The translations under genes were made by a program, and so were the position numbers. Below, piece after piece: positions 1-43,772 of a stretch of 64,000 bases of DNA. The stretch is taken from the NCBI GenBank assembly GCA_034658935.1, contig JAYEGE010000008.1, forward strand, positions 68,678 to 132,677, in the 5' to 3' direction. This DNA comes from Patescibacteria group bacterium (GTDB taxonomy: Bacteria > Patescibacteriota > Minisyncoccia > Phycocordibacterales > JACOZG01). Position 1 is the first letter of the stretch. Each line of letters begins with the position of its first letter. The notes below the pieces were generated by a model. The model was not told where the DNA came from. It saw only the letters and a list, made by a program, of their open reading frames with translations, and ran no database searches.

Positions 1-149
1 GTACCGATTCGGTACGGGCGGGGTGTCTCGGTCGCAGCCCCAGCTCGCTGCCTCGCTTGCTAGCTCGGTGTCGCTCCGCTTTTCGAGTCCCTCTGAGCGA
101 AGAATCACTGGAGCACCAACGCTATCACGTTGGTGCTAAGTGTTTCTAG

Positions 150-222
150 TCCGCTCAGAGGGATTCGAACCCCCGACCGTTCGGTTAAGAGCCGACTGCT
201 CTACCAACTGAGCTATGAGCGG
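150..222 (-). tRNA. tRNA-Lys (anticodon CTT)
   Basis: The reverse complement folds as a cloverleaf: acceptor CCGCTCA/TGAGCGG, D arm GCTC..GAGC, anticodon loop CTCTTAA, T arm GGGGG-TTCGAAT-CCCTC. The G27-A43 mismatch and C1 start are slightly atypical. Confidence 0.7.
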
Positions 223-394
223 AAACTTATTATTTACTGTCATCTGTCCACGCACCTCTAGTCCGATTACTCGGACCCTGTCCGCCCTCTGGCGGGAACT
301 GAGCCCCGCTCGTACCGAACAGTGGTGCGTTCGGGCGGGTATGAGCGGATGTTATGAGTGTAAAACTAAAGACGAAAAAAGTAAAATGAAGTAG

Positions 395-476
395 TGGGCC
401 AGGTGGGAATCGAACCCACATCCCTTGCGAGACACGATTTTAAGTCGTGCGCGTATACCAATTCCGCCACTGGCCC
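395..476 (-). tRNA. tRNA-Leu (anticodon TAA), class II with long variable arm
   Basis: The reverse complement reads GGGCCAG...CACGA-CTTAAAA-TCGTG with a long variable arm, then GTGGG-TTCGATT-CCCAC and CTGGCCC. CCA is not encoded. Confidence 0.85.
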
Positions 477-546
477 GAATATATTCTGCCTGCCTTCGGC
501 AGATGCTGAATTTTCATAGTCGCTTCTGCCCCTTAAAAATTCGCAG

Positions 547-618
547 AGGCCTAGGGCGGAATCGAACCGCCGTATAAGGGTTTTGCAGACCCTTGCCTTA
601 CCACTTGGCGACTAGGCC
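547..618 (-). tRNA. tRNA-Cys (anticodon GCA)
   Basis: The reverse complement reads GGCCTAG..AGGGT-CTGCAAA-ACCCT..GGCGG-TTCGATT-CCGCC-CTAGGCC. Confidence 0.85.
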
Positions 619-3012: not shown

Positions 3013-4251
3013 ATGCCTAAAACACGTCGAATTAATTTTGATACCGCCGCCGCTACACCACTGGACCCGGCAATCAAGCGAGAGATGAATGCTTATCTAC
3101 GCAGCAATTTCGCTAACCCGTCTGGCTTGCACCAAGAGGGGGTGGCGGCGGCGCGTGAGCTTGCCAATGCCCGTGCGCGAGTGGCTGCCATCCTTGGTGC
3201 TCACTCTGACGAGATTGTTTTCACTAGTGGCGGGACTGAGGCGAATAACTTGGCGGTTTTTGGCGTAGTTGAGGCTCTTGAATCATTTGGACACGCCGTG
3301 TCCAAATCAAGGAAGCCCATTTGGACATGGCGTGTCCAAATGCAGGTGGTTACTTCGGCCATTGAGCACGCCTCGGTATTGGGGGCGGTGCGGGTGCTCG
3401 AGGGGCGGGGAGTGAAGGTGAGTTATCTGTCAGTAAATCGTGAAGGCTTAGTTAATCAAAAAAAATTGAAGACCGCCTTAAATAAAAAAACCAAACTCGT
3501 TTCTATTATTTATGCCCATAATGAAATTGGGGTGGTCCAACCGATCAGGGAGATTGCTAAAATTATCCGTCACCATTGTAAGCGGCATGGGACGGTTTAT
3601 CCTTATTTACATATTGATGCCTGCCAGGCGCCGCGTTTTCTTGACATCAACGTGGCTCGCTTGGGCGTAGACTTGATGACAATCAATGCTGGTAAGATTT
3701 ATGGCCCGCGTGGTATTGGTGCGCTCTACGTTAGGCGAGGTGTCGAGCTTGGGGCGCAATCAGTCGGTGGTAGCCAGGAGGGTGGACGGCGAGCAGGGAC
3801 TGAGAACGTGGCCGGTGCCATCGGCCTAGCCGGGGCCCTAGAAATTTGTGCTAAGGAGCGCGAAAAAGAAGCCAAGAGATTAAGCAAATTGCGCGATCAA
3901 TTAATTGCTGGCTTATTAAAGATTGATGGTGTTGAGTTGAATGGGCCACTGACAGAAAGATTGCCCAATAACGTTAATATTGGTGTTGGTGTCCCTAATC
4001 TAGAAAGTGAACAGGTGGTCATCGAGCTTGATGCCCAGGGCATTGCTTGTTCTACTGGCGCGGCTTGTAGCATTCCTAAACGTGACGGTTCCTATGTTAT
4101 AATGGCTCTAGGCAGAGACGAAGTGGCGGCGCGGAATGCAATTAGATTTACCCTTGGGCGGGAGGCGACGTCGGCTGACGTTAGGCATGTATTAAAAAGT
4201 CTAATAGCAATTTTCAAAAAATATGTACCAAGTCCCATCACTAAAATTTAG
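3013..4251 (+). CDS. cysteine desulfurase (class V aminotransferase, IscS/NifS group I)
   Basis: Has the TSGGTEANNLA motif, a PLP-lysine region and the C-terminal active-site Cys loop (ACSTGAACS). It carries an unusual in-frame palindromic insert at 3285-3343. Confidence 0.9.
   Translation: MPKTRRINFDTAAATPLDPAIKREMNAYLRSNFANPSGLHQEGVAAARELANARARVAAILGAHSDEIVFTSGGTEANNLAVFGVVEALESFGHAVSKSRKPIWTWRVQMQVVTSAIEHASVLGAVRVLEGRGVKVSYLSVNREGLVNQKKLKTALNKKTKLVSIIYAHNEIGVVQPIREIAKIIRHHCKRHGTVYPYLHIDACQAPRFLDINVARLGVDLMTINAGKIYGPRGIGALYVRRGVELGAQSVGGSQEGGRRAGTENVAGAIGLAGALEICAKEREKEAKRLSKLRDQLIAGLLKIDGVELNGPLTERLPNNVNIGVGVPNLESEQVVIELDAQGIACSTGAACSIPKRDGSYVIMALGRDEVAARNAIRFTLGREATSADVRHVLKSLIAIFKKYVPSPITKI
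3285..3343. repeat. tandem pair of about 23-nt palindromes (ATTTGGACACGCCGTGTCCAAAT) embedded in-frame in the desulfurase CDS
   Basis: Copy 1 (3286-3308) is a perfect palindrome. Copy 2 (3320-3342) has one mismatch. The two are separated by 11 nt. Confidence 0.8.
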
Positions 4252-4370: not shown

Positions 4371-5282
4371 ATGGAGGAATTAAATAAAAACCAAATAGTT
4401 CTCTTGACTCTACTAGTTAGCTTTGTCACCTCGATTGCTACGGGCATTGTGACCGTTACTCTTATGGATCAGGCTCCGGCCCCGGTGACTCAGACCATTA
4501 ATCGGGTAGTTGAGCGAACTATTGAAAAGGCGGTCCCCGGCGAGACCAAAATAGAGACGGTCGTTAAGGAGGTCCCAGTAGTGGTAACCGAAGATAAATT
4601 GATTGTCGATGTTATTAACAATACTTCTCCGGGGGCGGTTAGGATTACCGACCTTGAGGGCGAGACTGTGGCGACTGGTTTTATCGCTGATGCAAGCGGT
4701 TTGGTGGCGACTGCCAAGTCCCTACTCATTCCTCTGGCCCCTATCGAGACTATTGATGATGATGCCGCCGGGCTCACAAATGAGGAGGAAGTAGAGATAG
4801 ATGCTGTAGAGGAAGAGACTCCAGAGTCGGAGCCTGCCCCCACTGATTACTTGGTTCACTTTAATAATGGTCAGAGTCTCTCAGCTAAATTACTAGAGAC
4901 CAATGCTGAAGTGGAGGTGGCTCTCTTGAAAGTTGATTTGGGGGAAGTGGCCGATATTGGTCAATTGGCCGGAGTTGGTGGCACCACCAGCAGGCAGCCA
5001 ATAGTTCTATCTCTCACTGACGACGAGCCTTTGCCTGGTCAGACAGTGGTCGCGCTTGGCCTACCAGATGCTGGGCCGATTAATGTCTCTGGAGGTTTGG
5101 TTTCTAGTGTTTACGCTGACGGCGCGGGCGTGACACTAATCGTTACTACTGCCGCCAATGTTAGTAACCTGGGTGGCCCACTCTTCAATACCGATGGTGA
5201 AGTGATTGGTCTCAATCGGTCGGTTGGGTCAGCGATTGGTGCGGAGGCGATTAGACAAGCTATTACTGAAATAAGCACTTAG
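4371..5282 (+). CDS. membrane-anchored trypsin-like (S1C/HtrA-fold) protein, probably catalytically inactive
   Basis: N-terminal TM helix. The C-terminal region aligns to the HtrA protease domain. The conserved GNSGGPL is replaced by SNLGGPLFNTDGEVIGLN (Ser to Leu), and the His region reads ATAKS. Confidence 0.6.
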   Translation: MEELNKNQIVLLTLLVSFVTSIATGIVTVTLMDQAPAPVTQTINRVVERTIEKAVPGETKIETVVKEVPVVVTEDKLIVDVINNTSPGAVRITDLEGETVATGFIADASGLVATAKSLLIPLAPIETIDDDAAGLTNEEEVEIDAVEEETPESEPAPTDYLVHFNNGQSLSAKLLETNAEVEVALLKVDLGEVADIGQLAGVGGTTSRQPIVLSLTDDEPLPGQTVVALGLPDAGPINVSGGLVSSVYADGAGVTLIVTTAANVSNLGGPLFNTDGEVIGLNRSVGSAIGAEAIRQAITEIST

Positions 5283-8231: not shown

Positions 8232-8314
8232 GCGTCGGTGGCGGAGTGGTCAATCGCAACAGACTGTAAATCTGTCGACTTATGTCTACGCAGGTTCGAA
8301 TCCTGCCCGGCGCA
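8232..8314 (+). tRNA. tRNA-Tyr (anticodon GTA), class II
   Basis: Acceptor GCGTCGG/CCGGCGC, anticodon loop CTGTAAA, long variable arm, T arm GCAGG-TTCGAAT-CCTGC. Confidence 0.85.
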
Positions 8315-8397
8315 CAATTTGACAATTAGTTTTAAATAGTATATTGTGAAGAGGGTCGGTTAGATATTTCCAAGGTTCAAAAAGAAAGGGAAGTGCC

Positions 8398-10054: not shown

Positions 10055-10125
10055 GGGTCCATAGTTCAATGGTAGAATAACGGTCTCCAAAACCGTCGAT
10101 CGAGGTTCGAATCCTCGTGGACCCG
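10055..10125 (+). tRNA. tRNA-Trp (anticodon CCA)
   Basis: Acceptor GGGTCCA/TGGACCC, anticodon arm ACGGT-CTCCAAA-ACCGT, T arm CGAGG-TTCGAAT-CCTCG. Confidence 0.85.
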
Positions 10126-10149
10126 CCCGCAGTGCCGTAGCGCAGCGAG

Positions 10150-12338: not shown

Positions 12339-12341
12339 TCA

Positions 12342-12413
12342 TGCTCTCGGCAGGAATCGAACCTGCATCACGAGCTCCGGAGGCCCGCGTTCTATCCGTT
12401 GAACTACGAGAGC
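12342..12413 (-). tRNA. tRNA-Arg (anticodon CCG)
   Basis: The reverse complement reads GCTCTCG..CGGGC-CTCCGGA-GCTCG..GCAGG-TTCGATT-CCTGC-CGAGAGC. It lies 4 nt upstream of the miaA start on the same strand. Confidence 0.8.
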
Positions 12414-12579
12414 AAGTCAACCACCCACATATGGAGTCTACCATTGAATCCCGACGTTCGCTTCGCTTCAGTCGGGACCCCGACCCCCATGCAAGGGCGT
12501 CGGGGCTACGAGAGCTTTTGTTGGTTTAGCCTATCAATTTTTTGCCTTTTTGCCCATTTTGGCCTAGAATTTCTTTTGA

Positions 12580-12661
12580 GCCGGGATGGCGGAATTGGTA
12601 GACGCGCACGACTCAAAATCGTGTGGGGCAACCCATGGGAGTTCGATTCTCCCTCCCGGCA
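12580..12661 (+). tRNA. tRNA-Leu (anticodon CAA), class II
   Basis: Acceptor GCCGGGA/TCCCGGC, anticodon arm CACGA-CTCAAAA-TCGTG, long variable arm, T arm GGGAG-TTCGATT-CTCCC. A TAGAAT -10-like hexamer sits about 10 nt upstream. Confidence 0.85.
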
Positions 12662-12709
12662 CTACGAAGTACACAGCACGCCCATCTGTTTATGTGTTAA
12701 AATAGTCCT

Positions 12710-13940: not shown

Positions 13941-14756
13941 ATGACGATTCGATCGATCACGCCCAACCGAACCCAGAGGCAAGAGAAACAGTACAAGCGA
14001 TTCGTCGGGGATGCGGGTGACCGCGGACTCGTCGAGGTGGATCCTGACAAGGACGCTATTCAACGGCTCATTAGTCGTGGCGGCGAGTTCCAGGGCCACC
14101 TGATCGCAGGCATTCGCCGGTTCTCGGCCGAGCAGACCGACTACACGCACGCGCAGTCTATCCTCGGTACGGACTTTATCATTCCCGAGGAGGTCATGGA
14201 AGCTCGTTCCGGCATCACCTACGCCGGCAGGCATCTGGCCTTCCTGGCGGAGACGATGCCGAGCGAGGAGAATCTGCGGTGGTGCAAGGACAACGGCTAC
14301 GCCGTCATGCCGGCACCGCCTAAGCCGATTGCACTTTTGCCCGTCCGTGCCCTCAAGCCTGCCAACTTCTATCTGAAGACCGGTGGATGGTATGCGGATG
14401 AAAGTGAGAAGTTTGCCTCAAGCGACAAGACCCGTCGGGGATGGCTCGCGGTTCGCAAGACCCTGGTGCCGAACTCGACCTCAAAGACTTGGGACGAACA
14501 AAACGAGCTCCTCTCGAGTGTCGAGGAGGTACCGAATGCGGCCGAGATGGCGTGGTTTATCACCACCTACTTCGACGTCCGTGGCATTCGTCTTTTCGAG
14601 GACATCTGGGTTCGTACTTCTAGCGTCGACTCGGACGGTAACCATGTCGACGTCGGCCATTTCGGCCAGGACGGTCTCCACGTCGGCGACGATTGGGATG
14701 ACGGGCGCAGTGGCAACGTCGGTGTGTCCTCTGCTCGGAAGTTTTCTGAGCCTTGA
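13941..14756 (+). CDS. DGR target (variable) protein with C-terminal variable repeat
   Basis: Strong SD (AAGGGAGG) 7 nt before the ATG at 13941. The last about 42 codons are the VR matching the downstream TR. The gene is GC-rich relative to its surroundings. The fold was not identified; the ligand-binding region may be C-type-lectin-like (inference). Confidence 0.75.
   Translation: MTIRSITPNRTQRQEKQYKRFVGDAGDRGLVEVDPDKDAIQRLISRGGEFQGHLIAGIRRFSAEQTDYTHAQSILGTDFIIPEEVMEARSGITYAGRHLAFLAETMPSEENLRWCKDNGYAVMPAPPKPIALLPVRALKPANFYLKTGGWYADESEKFASSDKTRRGWLAVRKTLVPNSTSKTWDEQNELLSSVEEVPNAAEMAWFITTYFDVRGIRLFEDIWVRTSSVDSDGNHVDVGHFGQDGLHVGDDWDDGRSGNVGVSSARKFSEP
14620..14744 (+). repeat. DGR variable repeat (VR)
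   Basis: 125 nt matching TR at 15213-15337 with 13 mismatches, 11 of them at TR adenines. The 3' 35 nt are identical to TR and are IMH-like. Confidence 0.85.
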
Positions 14757-14757
14757 G

Positions 14758-14771
14758 CCGCCAGCTGGCGG
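14758..14771 (+). promoter_or_regulatory. GC hairpin downstream of VR (CCGCCAG|CTGGCGG)
   Basis: Perfect 14-nt palindrome 14 nt after the VR end, just past the stop codon. It is positioned like the stem-loop that promotes DGR homing in phage BPP-1. Confidence 0.55.
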
Positions 14772-15212
14772 TCTGGAGGGCTTGAGCCTCTTGGATTCTT
14801 GACCCGTCTGACGAACCTTGTCTAGCCCGTGCCGACGGCACGTCGGCCTAGGGAGCCTCCGCGCAAATTTTTCTACCAGGGATATTTGCCGGAGGCTCTT
14901 TTTATTTACCTACATATCACTTATAATACAGATATCTTGCTCATGAAGGCTAGATTACGGTTTAGTCTCGCGAGATGTCTCATCTTTGAGATCGCCAGAA
15001 TGTTTGCGTTTACGCCTGCCTGCTGGCAGGCAGGGATTCAAGCAGAGCGCGAAAAAGATAGGGATTTAACTTCTTGCTCGTTTCTAGCAGAGGTTTTTTG
15101 TCTTTAGGCAAGAGATGCTCTCGAATAAAATACAGGAAGGAGAGGACATAGGGATTGGGCTTTTGTCTACCCACAAACCTCGGCTTCTAGTGGCACAGAC
15201 GGAAACGGGCAA

Positions 15213-15337
15213 CTAGCGTCAACTCGGATGGTAACCATGTCAACGTCGGCAATTTCGACCAGGACGGTCTCAACGTCAACGACTATTGGGATGACAAGCG
15301 CAATGGCAACATCGGTGTGTCCTCTGCTCGGAAGTTT
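15213..15337 (+). repeat. DGR template repeat (TR)
   Basis: Intergenic A-rich copy of VR. In the VR frame it reads as a run of AAC/AAT codons (SVNSDGNHVNVGNFDQDGLNVNDYWDDKRNGNIG). It is not part of any ORF. Confidence 0.85.
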
Positions 15338-15369
15338 CTTCTCTACTATAAACGCCTCTTTCGGGGCGT

Positions 15370-15726
15370 TTAGTCTTTCTGTTGTTTGGAGGATTTAATC
15401 CAGCCACCAAGCATTCGTCCGATTTCATCCATAATTTCTTGGAGGGAGGTGTATTTCATGACATCGATGGATTTTGTGTCATGCGAGAGTCTGGCAAAGA
15501 TGCGAAGTAAGTTAAGCTTGATACTTACTTTATTCAAAACTGGCACCTTTTCAGTTCTAGGCATCGATGTTGCTTGTAGGATTCCCTCGATAATATCAAG
15601 CGAGGTATCTTCGCATCTCTGCCACAACGTATGTCTGTCTTGTTTAGGAACGGAAGCGCGGATATGATGTACAGTTTTATACAAATCATACACTTTTTTG
15701 AAAATCGGTATATCAAATTCATCCAT
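15370..15726 (-). CDS. avd: DGR accessory variability determinant (Avd), four-helix-bundle protein
   Basis: 118 aa. The C-terminal GRMLGGWIKSSKQQ closely resembles Bordetella phage Avd (GRILGSWIARVNRKGQ). It is adjacent to the TR and the RT. Confidence 0.75.
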   Translation of the reverse strand: MDEFDIPIFKKVYDLYKTVHHIRASVPKQDRHTLWQRCEDTSLDIIEGILQATSMPRTEKVPVLNKVSIKLNLLRIFARLSHDTKSIDVMKYTSLQEIMDEIGRMLGGWIKSSKQQKD

Positions 15727-16787
15727 GAGAACATTTGAACATATTTACAATCTGATAATTTCTCCCGAGAGCCTTTTCATTGCTTGGAAACGATTTAGCA
15801 GAGATAAACACAAAAAGAAAGATGTTCTGCAATTCGAGTGGAATTTGGAGCAAAACATTTTTGCATTGTGCCGAGAGCTGAAAAACAAAGTCTACCAGCA
15901 TGGACCATATACTGATTTTTACATTACTGACCCCAAACAACGACACATCCACAAGGCACTCGTTCGGGACAGGGTATTGCACCATTCGATTGTCCGCATA
16001 CTCACTCCGATCTTTGAACCAACATTTATCGCTAATTCTTTTTCTTGTCGAATTGGTAAAGGAACACACAAAGGAGTATTGATGGTGGAGAAAATGTTGC
16101 GCACGGTGAGTCGAAATAACACTAGAAGTTGCTACGTTCTTAAATGTGATATCAGGAGATTTTTTGACTCCATTGACCATAATATCCTGCTCAAAATGTT
16201 GGAGCAAAAAATTAAAGACCCAGCCGTGATGTGGCTCTTGGAAAGAATTGTCAGCAGTTACGAGAGAGAGGGAGAGAGAGAGGAAAAATTGCGCGGGGAA
16301 AGGGATACCCGTTGGCAATCTCACCTCCCAATTGTTTGCGAATATCTATATGAACAAGTTCGATCAGTTTGTAAAGCATGAATTGAGAACAAAATATTAC
16401 GCACGATATGCGGATGATTTCGTAATTATAGCAGATAATAGAGAAAAACTCGAGCGACTGGTGGTGCAAATCACAAACTTTCTTTCGGGCCAATTGGCGC
16501 TTTCGTTGCACCCGCATAAAGTTTCTATACAGGCATATACTTGCGGGGTAGATTTTCTGGGACAAATTATTTTTCCACATTACCGTCTACTTCGCGCCAA
16601 GACAAGAAAGAGAATCTTCAAGCAAATTAGACGTAAGGTTGAGCGATGCAACGATGGTTTAATTTCAGAGAAAACTTTGCACCATTCACTACAATCGTAT
16701 TTGGGCGTTCTCTCACATACCAATACATATGGGGATCTCAAGGAATTAAAAAATCAGGTTTGGTTTTGGTCCATAAAGGATAATTAG
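15725..16787 (+). CDS. DGR reverse transcriptase, reading frame interrupted in a (GA)n tract near 16262-16283
   Basis: The N-terminal part (15725-16381) has GPYTDFYITDPKQRHIHKAL and CRIGKGTHKGV. The second frame (16248-16787) has GKGIPVGNLTSQLFANIYMN and YADDFVII. The IGxxxSQ motif is diagnostic of DGR RTs versus group II intron RTs. Confidence 0.85.
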
Positions 16788-16876
16788 GGGGCCCTTGTTG
16801 TCTTAAATGAGCAAGTGGTGAGGGGTTTTGGTGCCTTCCCCTCCTTCGCTAAAGCTACGGTAGGACTGCGGCACTA

Positions 16877-19105
16877 CTACTTTGTTAATTTATGCGGATT
16901 ATGGTTTGGACAAGATTTGCTGCTACATCTCTCGGGGATCGTTTTTGTGCCTTGCATCATTAGGGAGCCGCACATGGTGCAGAGGGCGCCGGTTGGCTTG
17001 GCCTTGATGGCGTTCTTACAGGTGGGGTAATTGGAACAAGAATAGAAGATACCGAAACGTCCACGTTTCTCGGTCATCTCGCCCGTCTGACTTATCCCCG
17101 ACAAGCCTTTTTTGCAGACTGGACATTTGACACCAGTCCTTTTGGCCTCTTCAGCAGCTTCATCTTTCTTTATGTATTTACATTTTGGATAATTCGCACA
17201 AGAGACAAAGGTGCCGAAACGTCCTTCGCGCTCAACGAGTTTTCCATTTTTGCACTCAGGGCAAGCCTCACCAGTTTCTTTGGGGGCCATTTCCTTACCT
17301 TCAAGTGTCTTGGCACCAGTACACTCTGGGAATTTAGCGCAGGAATAGAATTTGCCTGAGCGGCTCAATTTGATAATCATCGGGCCATCGCAGGTTGGAC
17401 ATTTCATATCATCAGGCGCTTCACCAAGATTGGTGATCTTTGGCATCTTCTTCTTGGAGGCGATCTCGAGAGTGAAGGGGCCGTAGAAATCTTTCAGAGT
17501 TTTTACATAGTCGCGTTTGCCGTCGGCGATCTCGTCGAGCTCGTTTTCCATCTCGCTAGTGAAGGAGTCGCTGATATAAGAGGCGAAATTATTTTCCAAG
17601 AACTCGCTTACAACATCACCGGTCTCAGTCGGCTTCAGGCTCCGGCTCTCTTTATCAACATAGCCACGGTCGATGATGGTCTTAATAGTTGGTGCGTAGG
17701 TAGAAGGTCGGCCAATGCCGCGCTTCTCCAGCTCTTTTACCAATCCCGCTTCAGTGTAGCGATTGGGCGGCAGGGTTTCCTTGCCCTCGCTATTTATTTC
17801 CTTTAGATCGAGTGTCTCACCTTCTTCAACCACAGGTAATTCTGTTTCTTCGCCTTTGGCCGCCGGATCAGCTTTGAGCCAACCATCGAAGGTGGTTATG
17901 GAGCCGTTGGTTTCGAAGTTCGGCAGGGCCGCGGTTTTAACATCTGATGTTTTGACCGCGGCAGCAATTATCAATTTTGTTCGCTTAATTTTGGCGTCAC
18001 TCATCTGGCTAGCCACGACACGCGACCAGATCAATTTATAGAGTTTTTGTTCCTGCGGTGTTTTGCCGGCGCTACTTACGTTGGCATGAGATGGTCGTAC
18101 TGCCTCATGGGCTTCTTGGGCACTCTTAGATTTTGCGGCGTAACGACGTGTTTGTAGGTGGTCGGTACCAAATTTGTCTTTGACTACTCTAGCAATTTCA
18201 CCCAAGGCCTGTTGGCTTAGGTTAGTGCTGTCGGTACGCATATAGGTGATATGCCCGGCCTCGTAGAGTTTTTGAGCTAAGCGCATAGTAATAGAGGGGG
18301 AGTAACCTAAGCGTGACGAGGCCGCTTGTTGGAGGGTGGAGGTAGTGAAAGGTGGGCGCGGTGAGCGTTTGGCCTCGGTTTGCTTCACTTCCTTAATTTG
18401 CCATTTAGCTTTTTTGGCTTCAGTAACGATTTGCTCAGCTTCTTCACCCGCTTTCGGTTCTTCTGTGCAATGGGCCGGAAGCTCCTCCTTCTTGCTTGTC
18501 GCAAATAGTCCGTCGATTACCCAGAACTTCTCTGGGATGAAGGCGCGGATTTCTCGCTCGCGCTCAACCAAGATGCGGAGGGCGGGGGACTGAACGCGGC
18601 CGGCCGAGAGGCCATAGCGGAGCTTCTGCCATATTAGCCCAGACAGGTCGTAGCCGAAGAGTCGGTCAAGGACTCTCCTTGCTTCTTGGGCCTTCAATAG
18701 ATCCTCATCGATATCGCGTGGGTGCTTCATTGCTTCTTGCACTGCCCCCTCGGTGATTTCGTTGAAGGTGATCCGCTTGGTCTTAGATTTAGGTAATTTT
18801 AAGACTTCAGCGACGTGCCAGGCGATGGCTTCTCCTTCGCGGTCAGGGTCTGTGGCCAGGACTATTTCCTCCGCCTTTTTTGCCTTTTCTTTAAGTTCAG
18901 AAACGATCTTCTCTTTACCTTTGCTGATTTCGTAATGAGGAATAAAGCCGCCCTCGATATCGATGGCGTTCTTGTTTGATTTTGGTAAGTCGCGGACGTG
19001 CCCAACTGAGGCACGGACTGTGTATTCGTTATTTAAATATTTCTCAATTGTCTTCGCTTTGGCGGGCGACTCAACAATTAATAATTTGTTTGTTTTGTTT
19101 GGCAT
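16877..19105 (-). CDS. topA: DNA topoisomerase I
   Basis: TOPRIM start MPNKTNKLLIVESPAKAKTI, the catalytic core and multiple C-terminal Cys4 zinc ribbons. The start is taken at the internal ATG (19105) of the longer ORF. Confidence 0.9.
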   Translation of the reverse strand: MPNKTNKLLIVESPAKAKTIEKYLNNEYTVRASVGHVRDLPKSNKNAIDIEGGFIPHYEISKGKEKIVSELKEKAKKAEEIVLATDPDREGEAIAWHVAEVLKLPKSKTKRITFNEITEGAVQEAMKHPRDIDEDLLKAQEARRVLDRLFGYDLSGLIWQKLRYGLSAGRVQSPALRILVEREREIRAFIPEKFWVIDGLFATSKKEELPAHCTEEPKAGEEAEQIVTEAKKAKWQIKEVKQTEAKRSPRPPFTTSTLQQAASSRLGYSPSITMRLAQKLYEAGHITYMRTDSTNLSQQALGEIARVVKDKFGTDHLQTRRYAAKSKSAQEAHEAVRPSHANVSSAGKTPQEQKLYKLIWSRVVASQMSDAKIKRTKLIIAAAVKTSDVKTAALPNFETNGSITTFDGWLKADPAAKGEETELPVVEEGETLDLKEINSEGKETLPPNRYTEAGLVKELEKRGIGRPSTYAPTIKTIIDRGYVDKESRSLKPTETGDVVSEFLENNFASYISDSFTSEMENELDEIADGKRDYVKTLKDFYGPFTLEIASKKKMPKITNLGEAPDDMKCPTCDGPMIIKLSRSGKFYSCAKFPECTGAKTLEGKEMAPKETGEACPECKNGKLVEREGRFGTFVSCANYPKCKYIKKDEAAEEAKRTGVKCPVCKKGLSGISQTGEMTEKRGRFGIFYSCSNYPTCKNAIKAKPTGALCTMCGSLMMQGTKTIPERCSSKSCPNHNPHKLTK

Positions 19106-19200
19106 GTACTTGTTAGAGCACATTAGTACTATGTATCCACATTTTTTGCAAATAGAAGATAGAAAAGGCCGCCCCGAAGTGGGGCGGCTGACGTTTCCGT

Positions 19201-20064
19201 TCATCCAAAGTATTCTTGTCGCGGTGGGCCGAGGCGAACAAGTTCGCAGAGCTTGGCTAAACCGGCAAGGAGGGTTAATTGATCGGTTCCCGCATCAATA
19301 TTGTGTGAGGATAGTGTGTAGCCTCTGTCCGGCCTCTCCGCCCCCATTGCTCGGCGATCTTCTCCCGGCCCAAGGGTGCAGGCGCTACCCGGTATTCGTA
19401 ACATAAGCCATTTTCCTCGCTGACACGATGCCTCGAAATCCCAATGACGGCCTGTATGCGGGGTGCCTGTAGAACACATCTTGGCATCAGCCTGGATCAT
19501 GGCAAGCTTGATGGGGATCAGGCGTGCTTCGTCGGGGCAATGAGCTAACCACCGAATTATAGCAGGCGATAGATCGACATCGAAGCCGGCAGCTTCCCTG
19601 CCGATTCCTGCACCTAAGCCGTTAATGAGCAGGAGTTGGTTGCCGGTGGCGCCGGTGTTACCTTCCCAATACAATAGGTTCCCGAGAAGGAGTTCCAGGG
19701 TGGAGCGAATGCATCGCATTATCGTCAAGCCTTTGACTCTGGCTTTGTCTGGAGAATGGATAGTCAATAGGGTGGGCAATTCAAAATTCCAACCTTGCCA
19801 GTTTTCGGGATCATCCTCTTCCATTGGTGAAAGCACCTCGCTGAAACCCCATGCCCGGCTTTTTTCAGGTGGTACGAAGTCGGGCAAATCGAATCGTTCT
19901 TGCCGATGTCTGATTCCGGCTGCACCAGAGCGTAAGTAGCTAATCAATGCAGGCCAGACTGCCCAATGAATTCTAATCCCGATTGTTTGCCCCTTGGACC
20001 CAAGAGTTAACTCATACCAAGCCGGACGGTCCTGGCGAACCAAGGCCGTAGAGTTTATGGTCAT
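19201..20064 (-). CDS. hypothetical protein, GC-rich relative to neighbours
   Basis: 287-aa ORF with no recognisable family. Possible Rossmann-like GLGAGIG. It is followed by its own hairpin plus T-run terminator at 19140-19187. Confidence 0.5.
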   Translation of the reverse strand: MTINSTALVRQDRPAWYELTLGSKGQTIGIRIHWAVWPALISYLRSGAAGIRHRQERFDLPDFVPPEKSRAWGFSEVLSPMEEDDPENWQGWNFELPTLLTIHSPDKARVKGLTIMRCIRSTLELLLGNLLYWEGNTGATGNQLLLINGLGAGIGREAAGFDVDLSPAIIRWLAHCPDEARLIPIKLAMIQADAKMCSTGTPHTGRHWDFEASCQRGKWLMLRIPGSACTLGPGEDRRAMGAERPDRGYTLSSHNIDAGTDQLTLLAGLAKLCELVRLGPPRQEYFG

Positions 20065-43698: not shown

Positions 43699-43772
43699 TG
43701 GTGGACCTACGGGGAGTCGAACCCCGGCTTCATCCATGCCATGGACGTGTGATACCGTTTCACCATAGGCCC
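43699..43772 (-). tRNA. tRNA-Ala (anticodon GGC), CCA encoded
   Basis: The reverse complement reads GGGCCTA.. with a G3:U70 pair, anticodon loop ATGGCAT and T arm CCGGGGTTCGACTCCCCG. A hairpin terminator follows at 43660-43698. Confidence 0.8.

Follow-up and report, generated by a model that had tools for sequence, protein, structure and literature searches.

The 64,000-nt stretch analyzed here (the window) is part of contig JAYEGE010000008.1 of a Patescibacteria group bacterium (GCA_034658935.1) and carries a complete diversity-generating retroelement (DGR) cassette. A target gene ending in the variable repeat (VR) lies upstream on the strand of the reverse transcriptase (RT), followed by the template repeat (TR), the accessory gene avd on the reverse strand, and the RT gene (table 1). 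This is the TR-(avd)-RT layout typical of the candidate phyla radiation (CPR), designated B3 by Wu et al. (2018; PMC5758913). The element is a further member of that well-described class, agreeing with it in gene order and strands, in one adjacent target that has its VR at the C-terminus and lacks a recognizable Pfam domain, in an RT clade confined to CPR metagenome-assembled genomes (MAGs), and in having at least 75% of its repeat mismatches at adenines (here 85%), with frequent non-adenine exceptions; it differs in that the RT open reading frame (ORF) of the window copy is frameshifted. Judged by protein identity it is a new member of its lineage, the best RT relative being 64% and the best target relative 73-74% identical.

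Table 1. Features of the cassette (window positions) and perfect (GA)8-12 tracts in related loci (positions within each locus)
Feature	Position	Strand	Remarks
Target (variable protein) gene, 271 aa	13941..14756	+	start as in GenBank MEA1929712.1
VR	14620..14744	+	last 42 codons of target; ends 12 nt before stop codon
Identical 3' tail TCGGTGTGTCCTCTGCTCGGAAGTTT	14719..14744	+	IMH-like, putative 3' boundary of mutagenesis
Five CTTG(A/G/T) motifs	14752..14821 (starts 14752, 14781, 14790, 14798, 14817)	+	around small palindrome GCCGCCAGCTGGCGG
Hairpin + TTTTT, GAGCCTCCG...CGGAGGCTCTTTT	14853..14898	+	target-gene terminator; conserved in relatives
TATAAT, -10-like box	14922..14927	+	6 nt before conserved RNA; TAnAnT at equal offset in relatives
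Structured RNA leader, 279 nt, 8 helices	14934..15212	+	directly 5' of TR
Leader helices, 5' part	14934-14940/14970-14976; 14945-14955/14960-14969; 14991-14995/15049-15053; 15001-15011/15034-15044		
Leader helices, 3' part	15074-15085/15201-15212; 15089-15099/15111-15121; 15135-15145/15178-15188; 15160-15162/15169-15171		
TR	15213..15337	+	non-coding; 8 AAY codons in target frame
10-bp hairpin with tetraloop	15349..15372		12 nt after TR; T-runs on both strands
avd (accessory variability determinant), 118 aa	15370..15726	-	divergent from RT
DGR RT gene, two frames	15725..16787	+	repaired product ~353 aa
(GA)4 GG (GA)5 G tract	16262-16282	+	equals (GA)10G with one A>G; then A5, G4, A3, G3
(GA)n tract, L007	2534-2553		
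(GA)n tract, L011	1865-1880		
(GA)n tract, L055	4581-4602		
(GA)n tract, L059	4549-4568		
(GA)n tract, L062	1237-1256		
(GA)n tract, L071	3970-3989		
(GA)n tract, L081	3969-3988		
(GA)n tract, L050	849-868		
(GA)n tract, L091			RT loop

A repeat search returned one direct repeat of 125 nt with 90% identity, the VR/TR pair, and blastn found no third copy in the window. Base-by-base comparison aligned the two copies without gaps and gave 13 mismatches, 11 of them (85%) at TR adenines (nine A>G, two A>C) and two at TR thymines, exactly as the first-pass annotation had counted them by hand. TR comprises 31 A, 29 T, 33 G, and 32 C; 11 of its 31 adenines are changed versus 2 of its 94 other bases (one-sided Fisher p = 2.5e-6), which upholds the annotated adenine specificity over an even spread across the four bases. 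Roux et al. (2021; PMC8144416) place the DGR threshold at 75% or more of mismatches at adenines. Read in the target frame, the TR adenines occupy codon position 1 in 12 cases, position 2 in 19, and position 3 in none, and TR encodes eight Asn (AAC/AAT) and two Lys, so the asparagine-rich reading also stands. The target family is hypervariable precisely at the AAY positions, and with 11 of 31 adenines differing, VR records past mutagenic homing.

The homology breaks off sharply at both ends, including directly after an identical 3' tail. That tail had been described as 35 nt long and as a protected region; its actual length is 26 nt, the last mismatch falling at repeat position 99. Its adenines are confined to GGAAG and positions 100-119 are adenine-free. 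Because the tail offers so few adenines, its identity in the two copies says little about protection. By analogy with the Bordetella model it may correspond to the initiation of mutagenic homing (IMH) site, and DGRs in which the VR and TR 3' ends are identical do exist (Wu et al. 2018; PMC5758913).

The proteins agree with the repeats. The target has the lectin fold common to Mtd, TvpA, and TaqVP, although its identity to TvpA (Treponema, 2y3c), TaqVP (Thermus, 5vf4), and the FGE/SUMF lectin-like fold is just 10-14% and no match to the Pfam FGE-sulfatase or DUF1566 families was obtained. Only a CPR family of ~200 proteins shares its N-terminal helical half. A mechanical ORF call starts the gene at GTG 13911, upstream of the GenBank start. 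Avd matches Pfam bAvd (PF22296, 1.9e-17) and the NCBIfam equivalog NF033474 DivGenRetAVD (85.2 bits, cutoff 80). The start codons of avd (15726-15724) and RT (15725-15727) overlap by 2 nt within CATG (15724-15727), leaving no intergenic space for a promoter; the promoters would have to lie inside the opposite gene, or RT could be read through from the TR RNA.

The RT is encoded in two frames, frame 1 running from 15725 to ~16297 (stop at 16381) and frame +1 from ~16299 to the stop at 16787. ORF 15725-16381 covers Pfam RVT_1 profile positions 10-100, and ORF 16248-16787 covers positions 111-205. Both the GNLTSQ and YADD motifs are present, the former invariant in the homolog alignment; the motif-4 sequence GxxxSQ is the DGR-specific signature of such enzymes. 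Homologs number 5581, all in Patescibacteria/CPR MAGs, and more than 5500 of them are intact at 349-350 aa. The closest solved structure is the Bordetella bRT (8ub7, E 1.4e-48), group II intron RTs being ~27 orders weaker (3e-21). Roux et al. (2021; PMC8144416) reported that such RTs form a Patescibacteria-only clade (DGR clade 2) with targets lacking known domains. The window copy has no intact RT reading frame, owing to a +1 shift between codon ~190 and the GIPVGN motif. This lowers the case for current activity, not the case for the element being a DGR.

The same cassette occurs in ~70 related loci. VR/TR pairs were taken beside the RT in 80 CPR loci of species-representative genomes, and 61 pairs were obtained. 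The distance from the TR end to the RT start is 388 nt in the window and 368-466 nt over the 62 pairs (61 relatives and the window). Loci L002, L003, L086, and L091 share the window layout. In L002 and L003, which carry the closest RT relatives, the target is followed after ~380 nt by TR, avd on the minus strand, and RT; the TR of L002 is 86% identical to that of the window. Locus L086, encoding the target relative P0126 (66% identity), has the same layout and the same ~380 nt target-TR gap. The nearer target relative P0122 (73% identity) lies on a contig without a visible TR (L089). All 14 VR/TR mismatches of L002 and 16 of the 17 of L086 fall at adenines. Together, RT, Avd, lectin-fold target, and conserved cassette bear out the first-pass DGR reading, and we are highly confident that the two repeats form the VR/TR pair of a Patescibacteria (CPR) DGR with the mechanism, past activity, drift, and probable silence proposed below.

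In three of these loci a large serine recombinase (Resolvase/Recombinase/Zn_ribbon_recom) lies directly after the RT gene (L002 7297-8628, L003 5252-6583, L086 7994-9319). Its presence in the closest relatives hints that the cassette may travel on a mobile element. The window has topA (16877-19204, minus strand) in that place instead.

The 468-nt spacer between VR and TR is conserved far beyond expectation for RTs that are 55-64% identical. The 279 nt from the -10-like TATAAT to the first TR base align in all 56 loci tested. RNAalifold, applied to a 15-sequence subclade, returned 65 pairs in eight helices, 46 of the pairs having compensatory double changes. Pairing holds in 94.9% of alignment cells versus 38-48% when the partners are slid by one to three columns, and none of 500 shuffles reached it; the covariation score is 0.54 versus 0.09-0.17 in the slid controls. 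The many G-U pairs assign the RNA to the plus strand. The last 3' base of a 12-bp helix (15074-15085/15201-15212) directly adjoins the first base of TR. When a covariance model was built from 14 sequences of the leader 3' domain, 70 of 84 sources each gave exactly one match, always on the strand of TR and with its end 0-7 nt upstream of TR; the single match in the window scored 114.7 bits. Locus L051 has a repeat pair (3282-3394 / 5138-5250) with T-specific differences on the RT strand; its leader match (3399-3510, minus strand) shows the TR unit inverted relative to RT.

Rfam 15 yielded no family at gathering scores for the TR flanks and none even at E <= 10 for 14740-15740, where the presence of the RT-10 motif in Rfam is our assumption. 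We found no description of the leader RNA, the CTTG repeats, or the (GA)n tracts treated below in Rfam 15 or in the DGR literature covered, which did not include Paul et al. 2017.

Further elements surround the leader. The TATAAT box, which a two-hexamer promoter scan missed, is a candidate promoter of the TR RNA, given its position and its conservation in relatives. The hairpin that precedes it and ends the target gene has a fold z-score of -4.6, reached by none of 200 shuffles. After TR, a hairpin of unrelated sequence is present in every related locus. The one in the window may act as a terminator of both the TR RNA (plus strand) and avd (minus strand), possibly bidirectionally. Other DGRs have an Avd-binding stem-loop shortly after TR (Handa et al., bioRxiv 10.1101/2023.10.23.563531), and by that analogy the hairpin at 15349-15372 is a candidate counterpart.

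On the recipient side, no 4-mer is more enriched than CTTG (5.9x) in the 90 nt that follow VR in 57 loci; it averages 2.65 copies there, the background being 0.46, and it is not present after TR. We infer from this distribution that the CTTG repeats are a candidate mark separating recipient (VR) from donor (TR). No GC-rich cruciform stood out after VR in the window, where the local fold (z -1.25) is no better than shuffles, or in the two relatives examined.

The Bordetella phage BPP-1 element (mtd-avd-TR-brt) offers the natural comparison. Its RT is the closest solved homolog of the window RT, and the two share an Avd homolog, adenine-specific transfer from TR to VR, a GC-rich and adenine-poor 3' boundary, and a duplex abutting the 5' end of TR, where BPP-1 has its "cPRT Stop" duplex. 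In BPP-1, however, the 140-nt spacer (Sp) RNA, with the primer, the "stop" duplex, and the RT- and Avd-binding stems, lies downstream of TR, and the RT-10 motif is located between TR and RT (Weinberg et al. 2017). Here the large structured RNA is upstream of TR, and downstream there is one hairpin followed by avd, on the opposite strand. The IMH and IMH* stretches are identical in the window, CTTG repeats take the place of a clear GC-rich cruciform after VR, and the host is cellular rather than a phage.

We propose that a non-coding RNA made from its own promoter at ~14922 would consist of the 279-nt leader, the 125-nt TR, and the terminal hairpin. The RT, together with Avd, would copy TR into cDNA, inserting wrong bases opposite adenines, and the cDNA would then replace VR at the 3' end of the lectin-fold gene, the adenine-free, GC-rich tail setting the 3' limit. 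The cDNA step, the binding of Avd, RT, and RNA to one another, and the functions assigned to the tail and to the post-VR motifs are carried over from the Bordetella phage model and would apply here by analogy.

The first-pass annotation had called the two mismatches at TR thymines unusual, a view that the relatives do not support. At least one non-adenine mismatch occurs in 35 of the 61 related pairs and at least two in 19 (none in 26 pairs, one in 16, two in 15, three in 2, and more than three in 2), amounting to 74 of 1068 mismatches (6.9%). Wu et al. (2018; PMC5758913) reported non-A-to-N substitutions in 23% of DGRs, CPR elements "frequently" having "multiple," and suggested lower fidelity in CPR DGRs. 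By this comparison the two differences are ordinary for the clade. The excess of A>G in the window (nine G, two C, and no T) is likewise typical of the clade, in which adenine is replaced by G in 57% of cases, T in 25%, and C in 18%.

To ask which copy had changed at these two sites, 55 related TRs were aligned. At 15229 (TR position 17) TR has T and VR has C, a synonymous difference (GAT/GAC), and seven of the nine closest TRs have C, the VR base. The change is probably C>T in TR, at the synonymous third position of a GAY codon, and never copied into VR. At 15284 (position 72) TR has T and VR has G, turning TAT into GAT (Tyr to Asp); T is found in six of the nine closest TRs and A in 41 of all 55 (codon AAC/TAY). 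This difference arose either as T>G in VR or as an older AAT to GAT change by adenine mutagenesis, followed by A>T in TR. Both are most simply read as ordinary point mutations since the last homing. With the RT frameshifted and the element probably silent, non-adenine differences could persist, which fits drift as their source.

The same differences could have been made by the RT itself, through misincorporation opposite bases other than adenine, or during cDNA integration. The ~7% of non-adenine mismatches in the related pairs and the lower fidelity suggested for CPR DGRs (Wu et al. 2018; PMC5758913) speak for such an origin, as does site 15284, which is non-synonymous and adjoins an adenine inside a diversified codon. 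Against it, 15229 is a synonymous transition at which most close TRs have the VR base, which points to a change in TR and not in the cDNA; a frameshifted RT gives time for drift; and the closest relative has no mismatch outside adenines. We consider this origin unlikely, if not negligibly so, and prefer drift after the last homing.

The second question is whether the frameshift is lasting. The stretch concerned, 16262-16304, reads GAGAGAGAGGGAGAGAGAGAGG-AAAAA-TTGCGC-GGGG-AAA-GGG, and the +1 shift lies within 16284-16304, the frame changing between "ERIVSSY" and "GKGIPVGNLTSQ". The loop it affects varies among relatives and adds 10 residues compared with the Bordetella bRT; "EREGEREEKLRG" in frame 1 parallels "REREREREEKIRQQG" in P0110. 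In a DNA alignment with L091, which encodes P0110, the 30-nt interval from the tract to GGCAA contains a surplus base in the window, making one extra G in 16295-16298 the simplest lesion, and its removal the simplest repair. Loss of one GA unit, though arithmetically possible, was rejected, since the L091 comparison locates the surplus base 3' of the tract. The same frameshift is present in the Logan assembly of SRR26901924, whose locus is identical base for base over 9130 nt, and the GenBank annotation of RT comprises the first 218 aa alone. The avd and target genes, TR, and the flanking leader RNA are all intact. On balance we favor past activity followed by probable silence at present; our preference is no more than modest, since the same reads may underlie both assemblies.

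A frameshift that does not last, whether a sequencing or assembly error or a reversible ON/OFF slippage in the (GA)n and homopolymer runs that would leave the DGR active in part of the population, seems to us the less probable alternative. The break lies in the low-complexity sequence GAGAGAGAGGGAGAGAGAGAGGAAAAATTGCGCGGGGAAAGGG, while Avd, target, TR, and leader have stayed intact. All dinucleotide repeats of at least six units in 683 kb of CPR DGR loci, eight in number, are (GA)8-11 on the RT or avd sense strand, four in the RT loop matching that of the window and four at the divergent avd/RT starts, and 5 of the 120 best RT homologs have an in-frame (RE)n in the RT loop. On the other side, the two assemblies are identical over 9.1 kb; the window tract is interrupted, (GA)4 plus (GA)5, and should slip rarely; the L091 comparison puts the extra base beyond it; and the 90% protein clusters are all singletons, so no length variants were seen. 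A lasting frameshift and a probably silent copy remain our preferred reading.

The (GA)n tracts themselves cluster at 16-22 nt across distant lineages, several with the flank C(GA)10G-TAAAC, and could be a phase-variation switch, a polypurine element, or an insertion scar. They resemble the simple-sequence-repeat (SSR) contingency loci of Neisseria and Campylobacter, which vary by slipped-strand mispairing, in being dinucleotide tracts of ~10 units that lie within a coding region or immediately ahead of it, so that gain or loss of one unit alters the reading frame, and the window tract adjoins a frameshift. Unlike those loci, no length polymorphism was seen here, and the clustered lengths and common flank could instead mean a sequence-specific role. 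Our literature search turned up nothing connecting DGRs with SSR switching. An "N-terminal extension ORF" before (GA)10 in L062, L071, and L081, considered as a sign of frame switching, proved to be the antisense image of the conserved avd N-terminus.

A simple segmental duplication that copied the 3' end of the gene, then diverged by ordinary mutation and has nothing to do with the RT, can be dismissed as the origin of the pair: there are just two copies, 90% identical, but the reading is already refuted by the concentration of mismatches on one base of one copy (p = 2.5e-6), and the repeat also keeps the constant spacing to avd and RT that 61 relatives show, with TR bounded by conserved RNA and a hairpin in 70 loci.

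Several points weigh against our account of the element. As to the priming of cDNA in the CPR layout, a scan of all 6-bp helices between the leader and the TR 3' end gave ACUUCU:GGAAGU alone; this duplex pairs in 88% of cells but hardly covaries, one of its pairs fails in 9 of 15 sequences, and it is not claimed as the primer. The two agreeing assemblies probably share reads, leaving room for a systematic error or a minority ON variant. The ancestral-state comparison rests on TRs that are 72-86% identical and is ambiguous at position 72, and a non-canonical RT error could equally yield T>C and T>G. No sibling strain or read data turned up that could bear on current activity or on which way the T-site changes went. 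Apart from the window's own contig, an exact look-up of Avd and target for sibling genomes returned only a contig of Logan SRR26901924, which shows 100% identity along 9130 nt, and a metagenome scan with the VR/TR tail returned no sibling, just a 64%-RT relative and a 1.4-kb fragment. A GTDB scan had no RT above ~62% identity, and the singleton 90% clusters contain no close protein variants.

Taken alone, the window DGR changes little, being one more among the thousands catalogued in CPR, in which exceptions are normal. Its chief value lies in the clade-wide leader RNA and (GA)n tracts that comparison exposed. DGR biochemistry rests almost wholly on one phage element whose essential RNA is downstream of TR, whereas the most DGR-rich lineage appears to put a larger, covarying RNA upstream of TR, with avd antisense downstream. 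If the leader indeed serves as the scaffold for priming and for RT/Avd binding, these elements must organize priming and termination in another way. It is possible, and we put it forward tentatively, that CPR TR-(avd)-RT DGRs generally operate on such a differently organized RNA, with an upstream domain of ~280 nt and permuted Sp and "stop" functions, CTTG marks on the recipient, and (GA)n-gated RT and Avd, the window copy being OFF. The recurrent (GA)~10 tracts at RT and avd make it a testable idea that targeted hypermutation itself may switch on and off, and in CPR genomes the covariance model can now serve to locate TRs and assign their strand.

The neighborhood of the DGR is ordinary chromosomal, with ParB, TopA, and DprA and no phage genes nearby. 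In 14001-17000 the target region has a GC content of 57.7% and the TR-leader, avd, and RT regions 42-43%, against a window average of ~49%. Eight tRNA genes are present in the window (149-618, 8232-8315, 10055-10127, 12341-12662, and 43699-43772), and tRNAs Arg-CCG and Leu-CAA flank a miaA-like/ParB region just upstream of the DGR.

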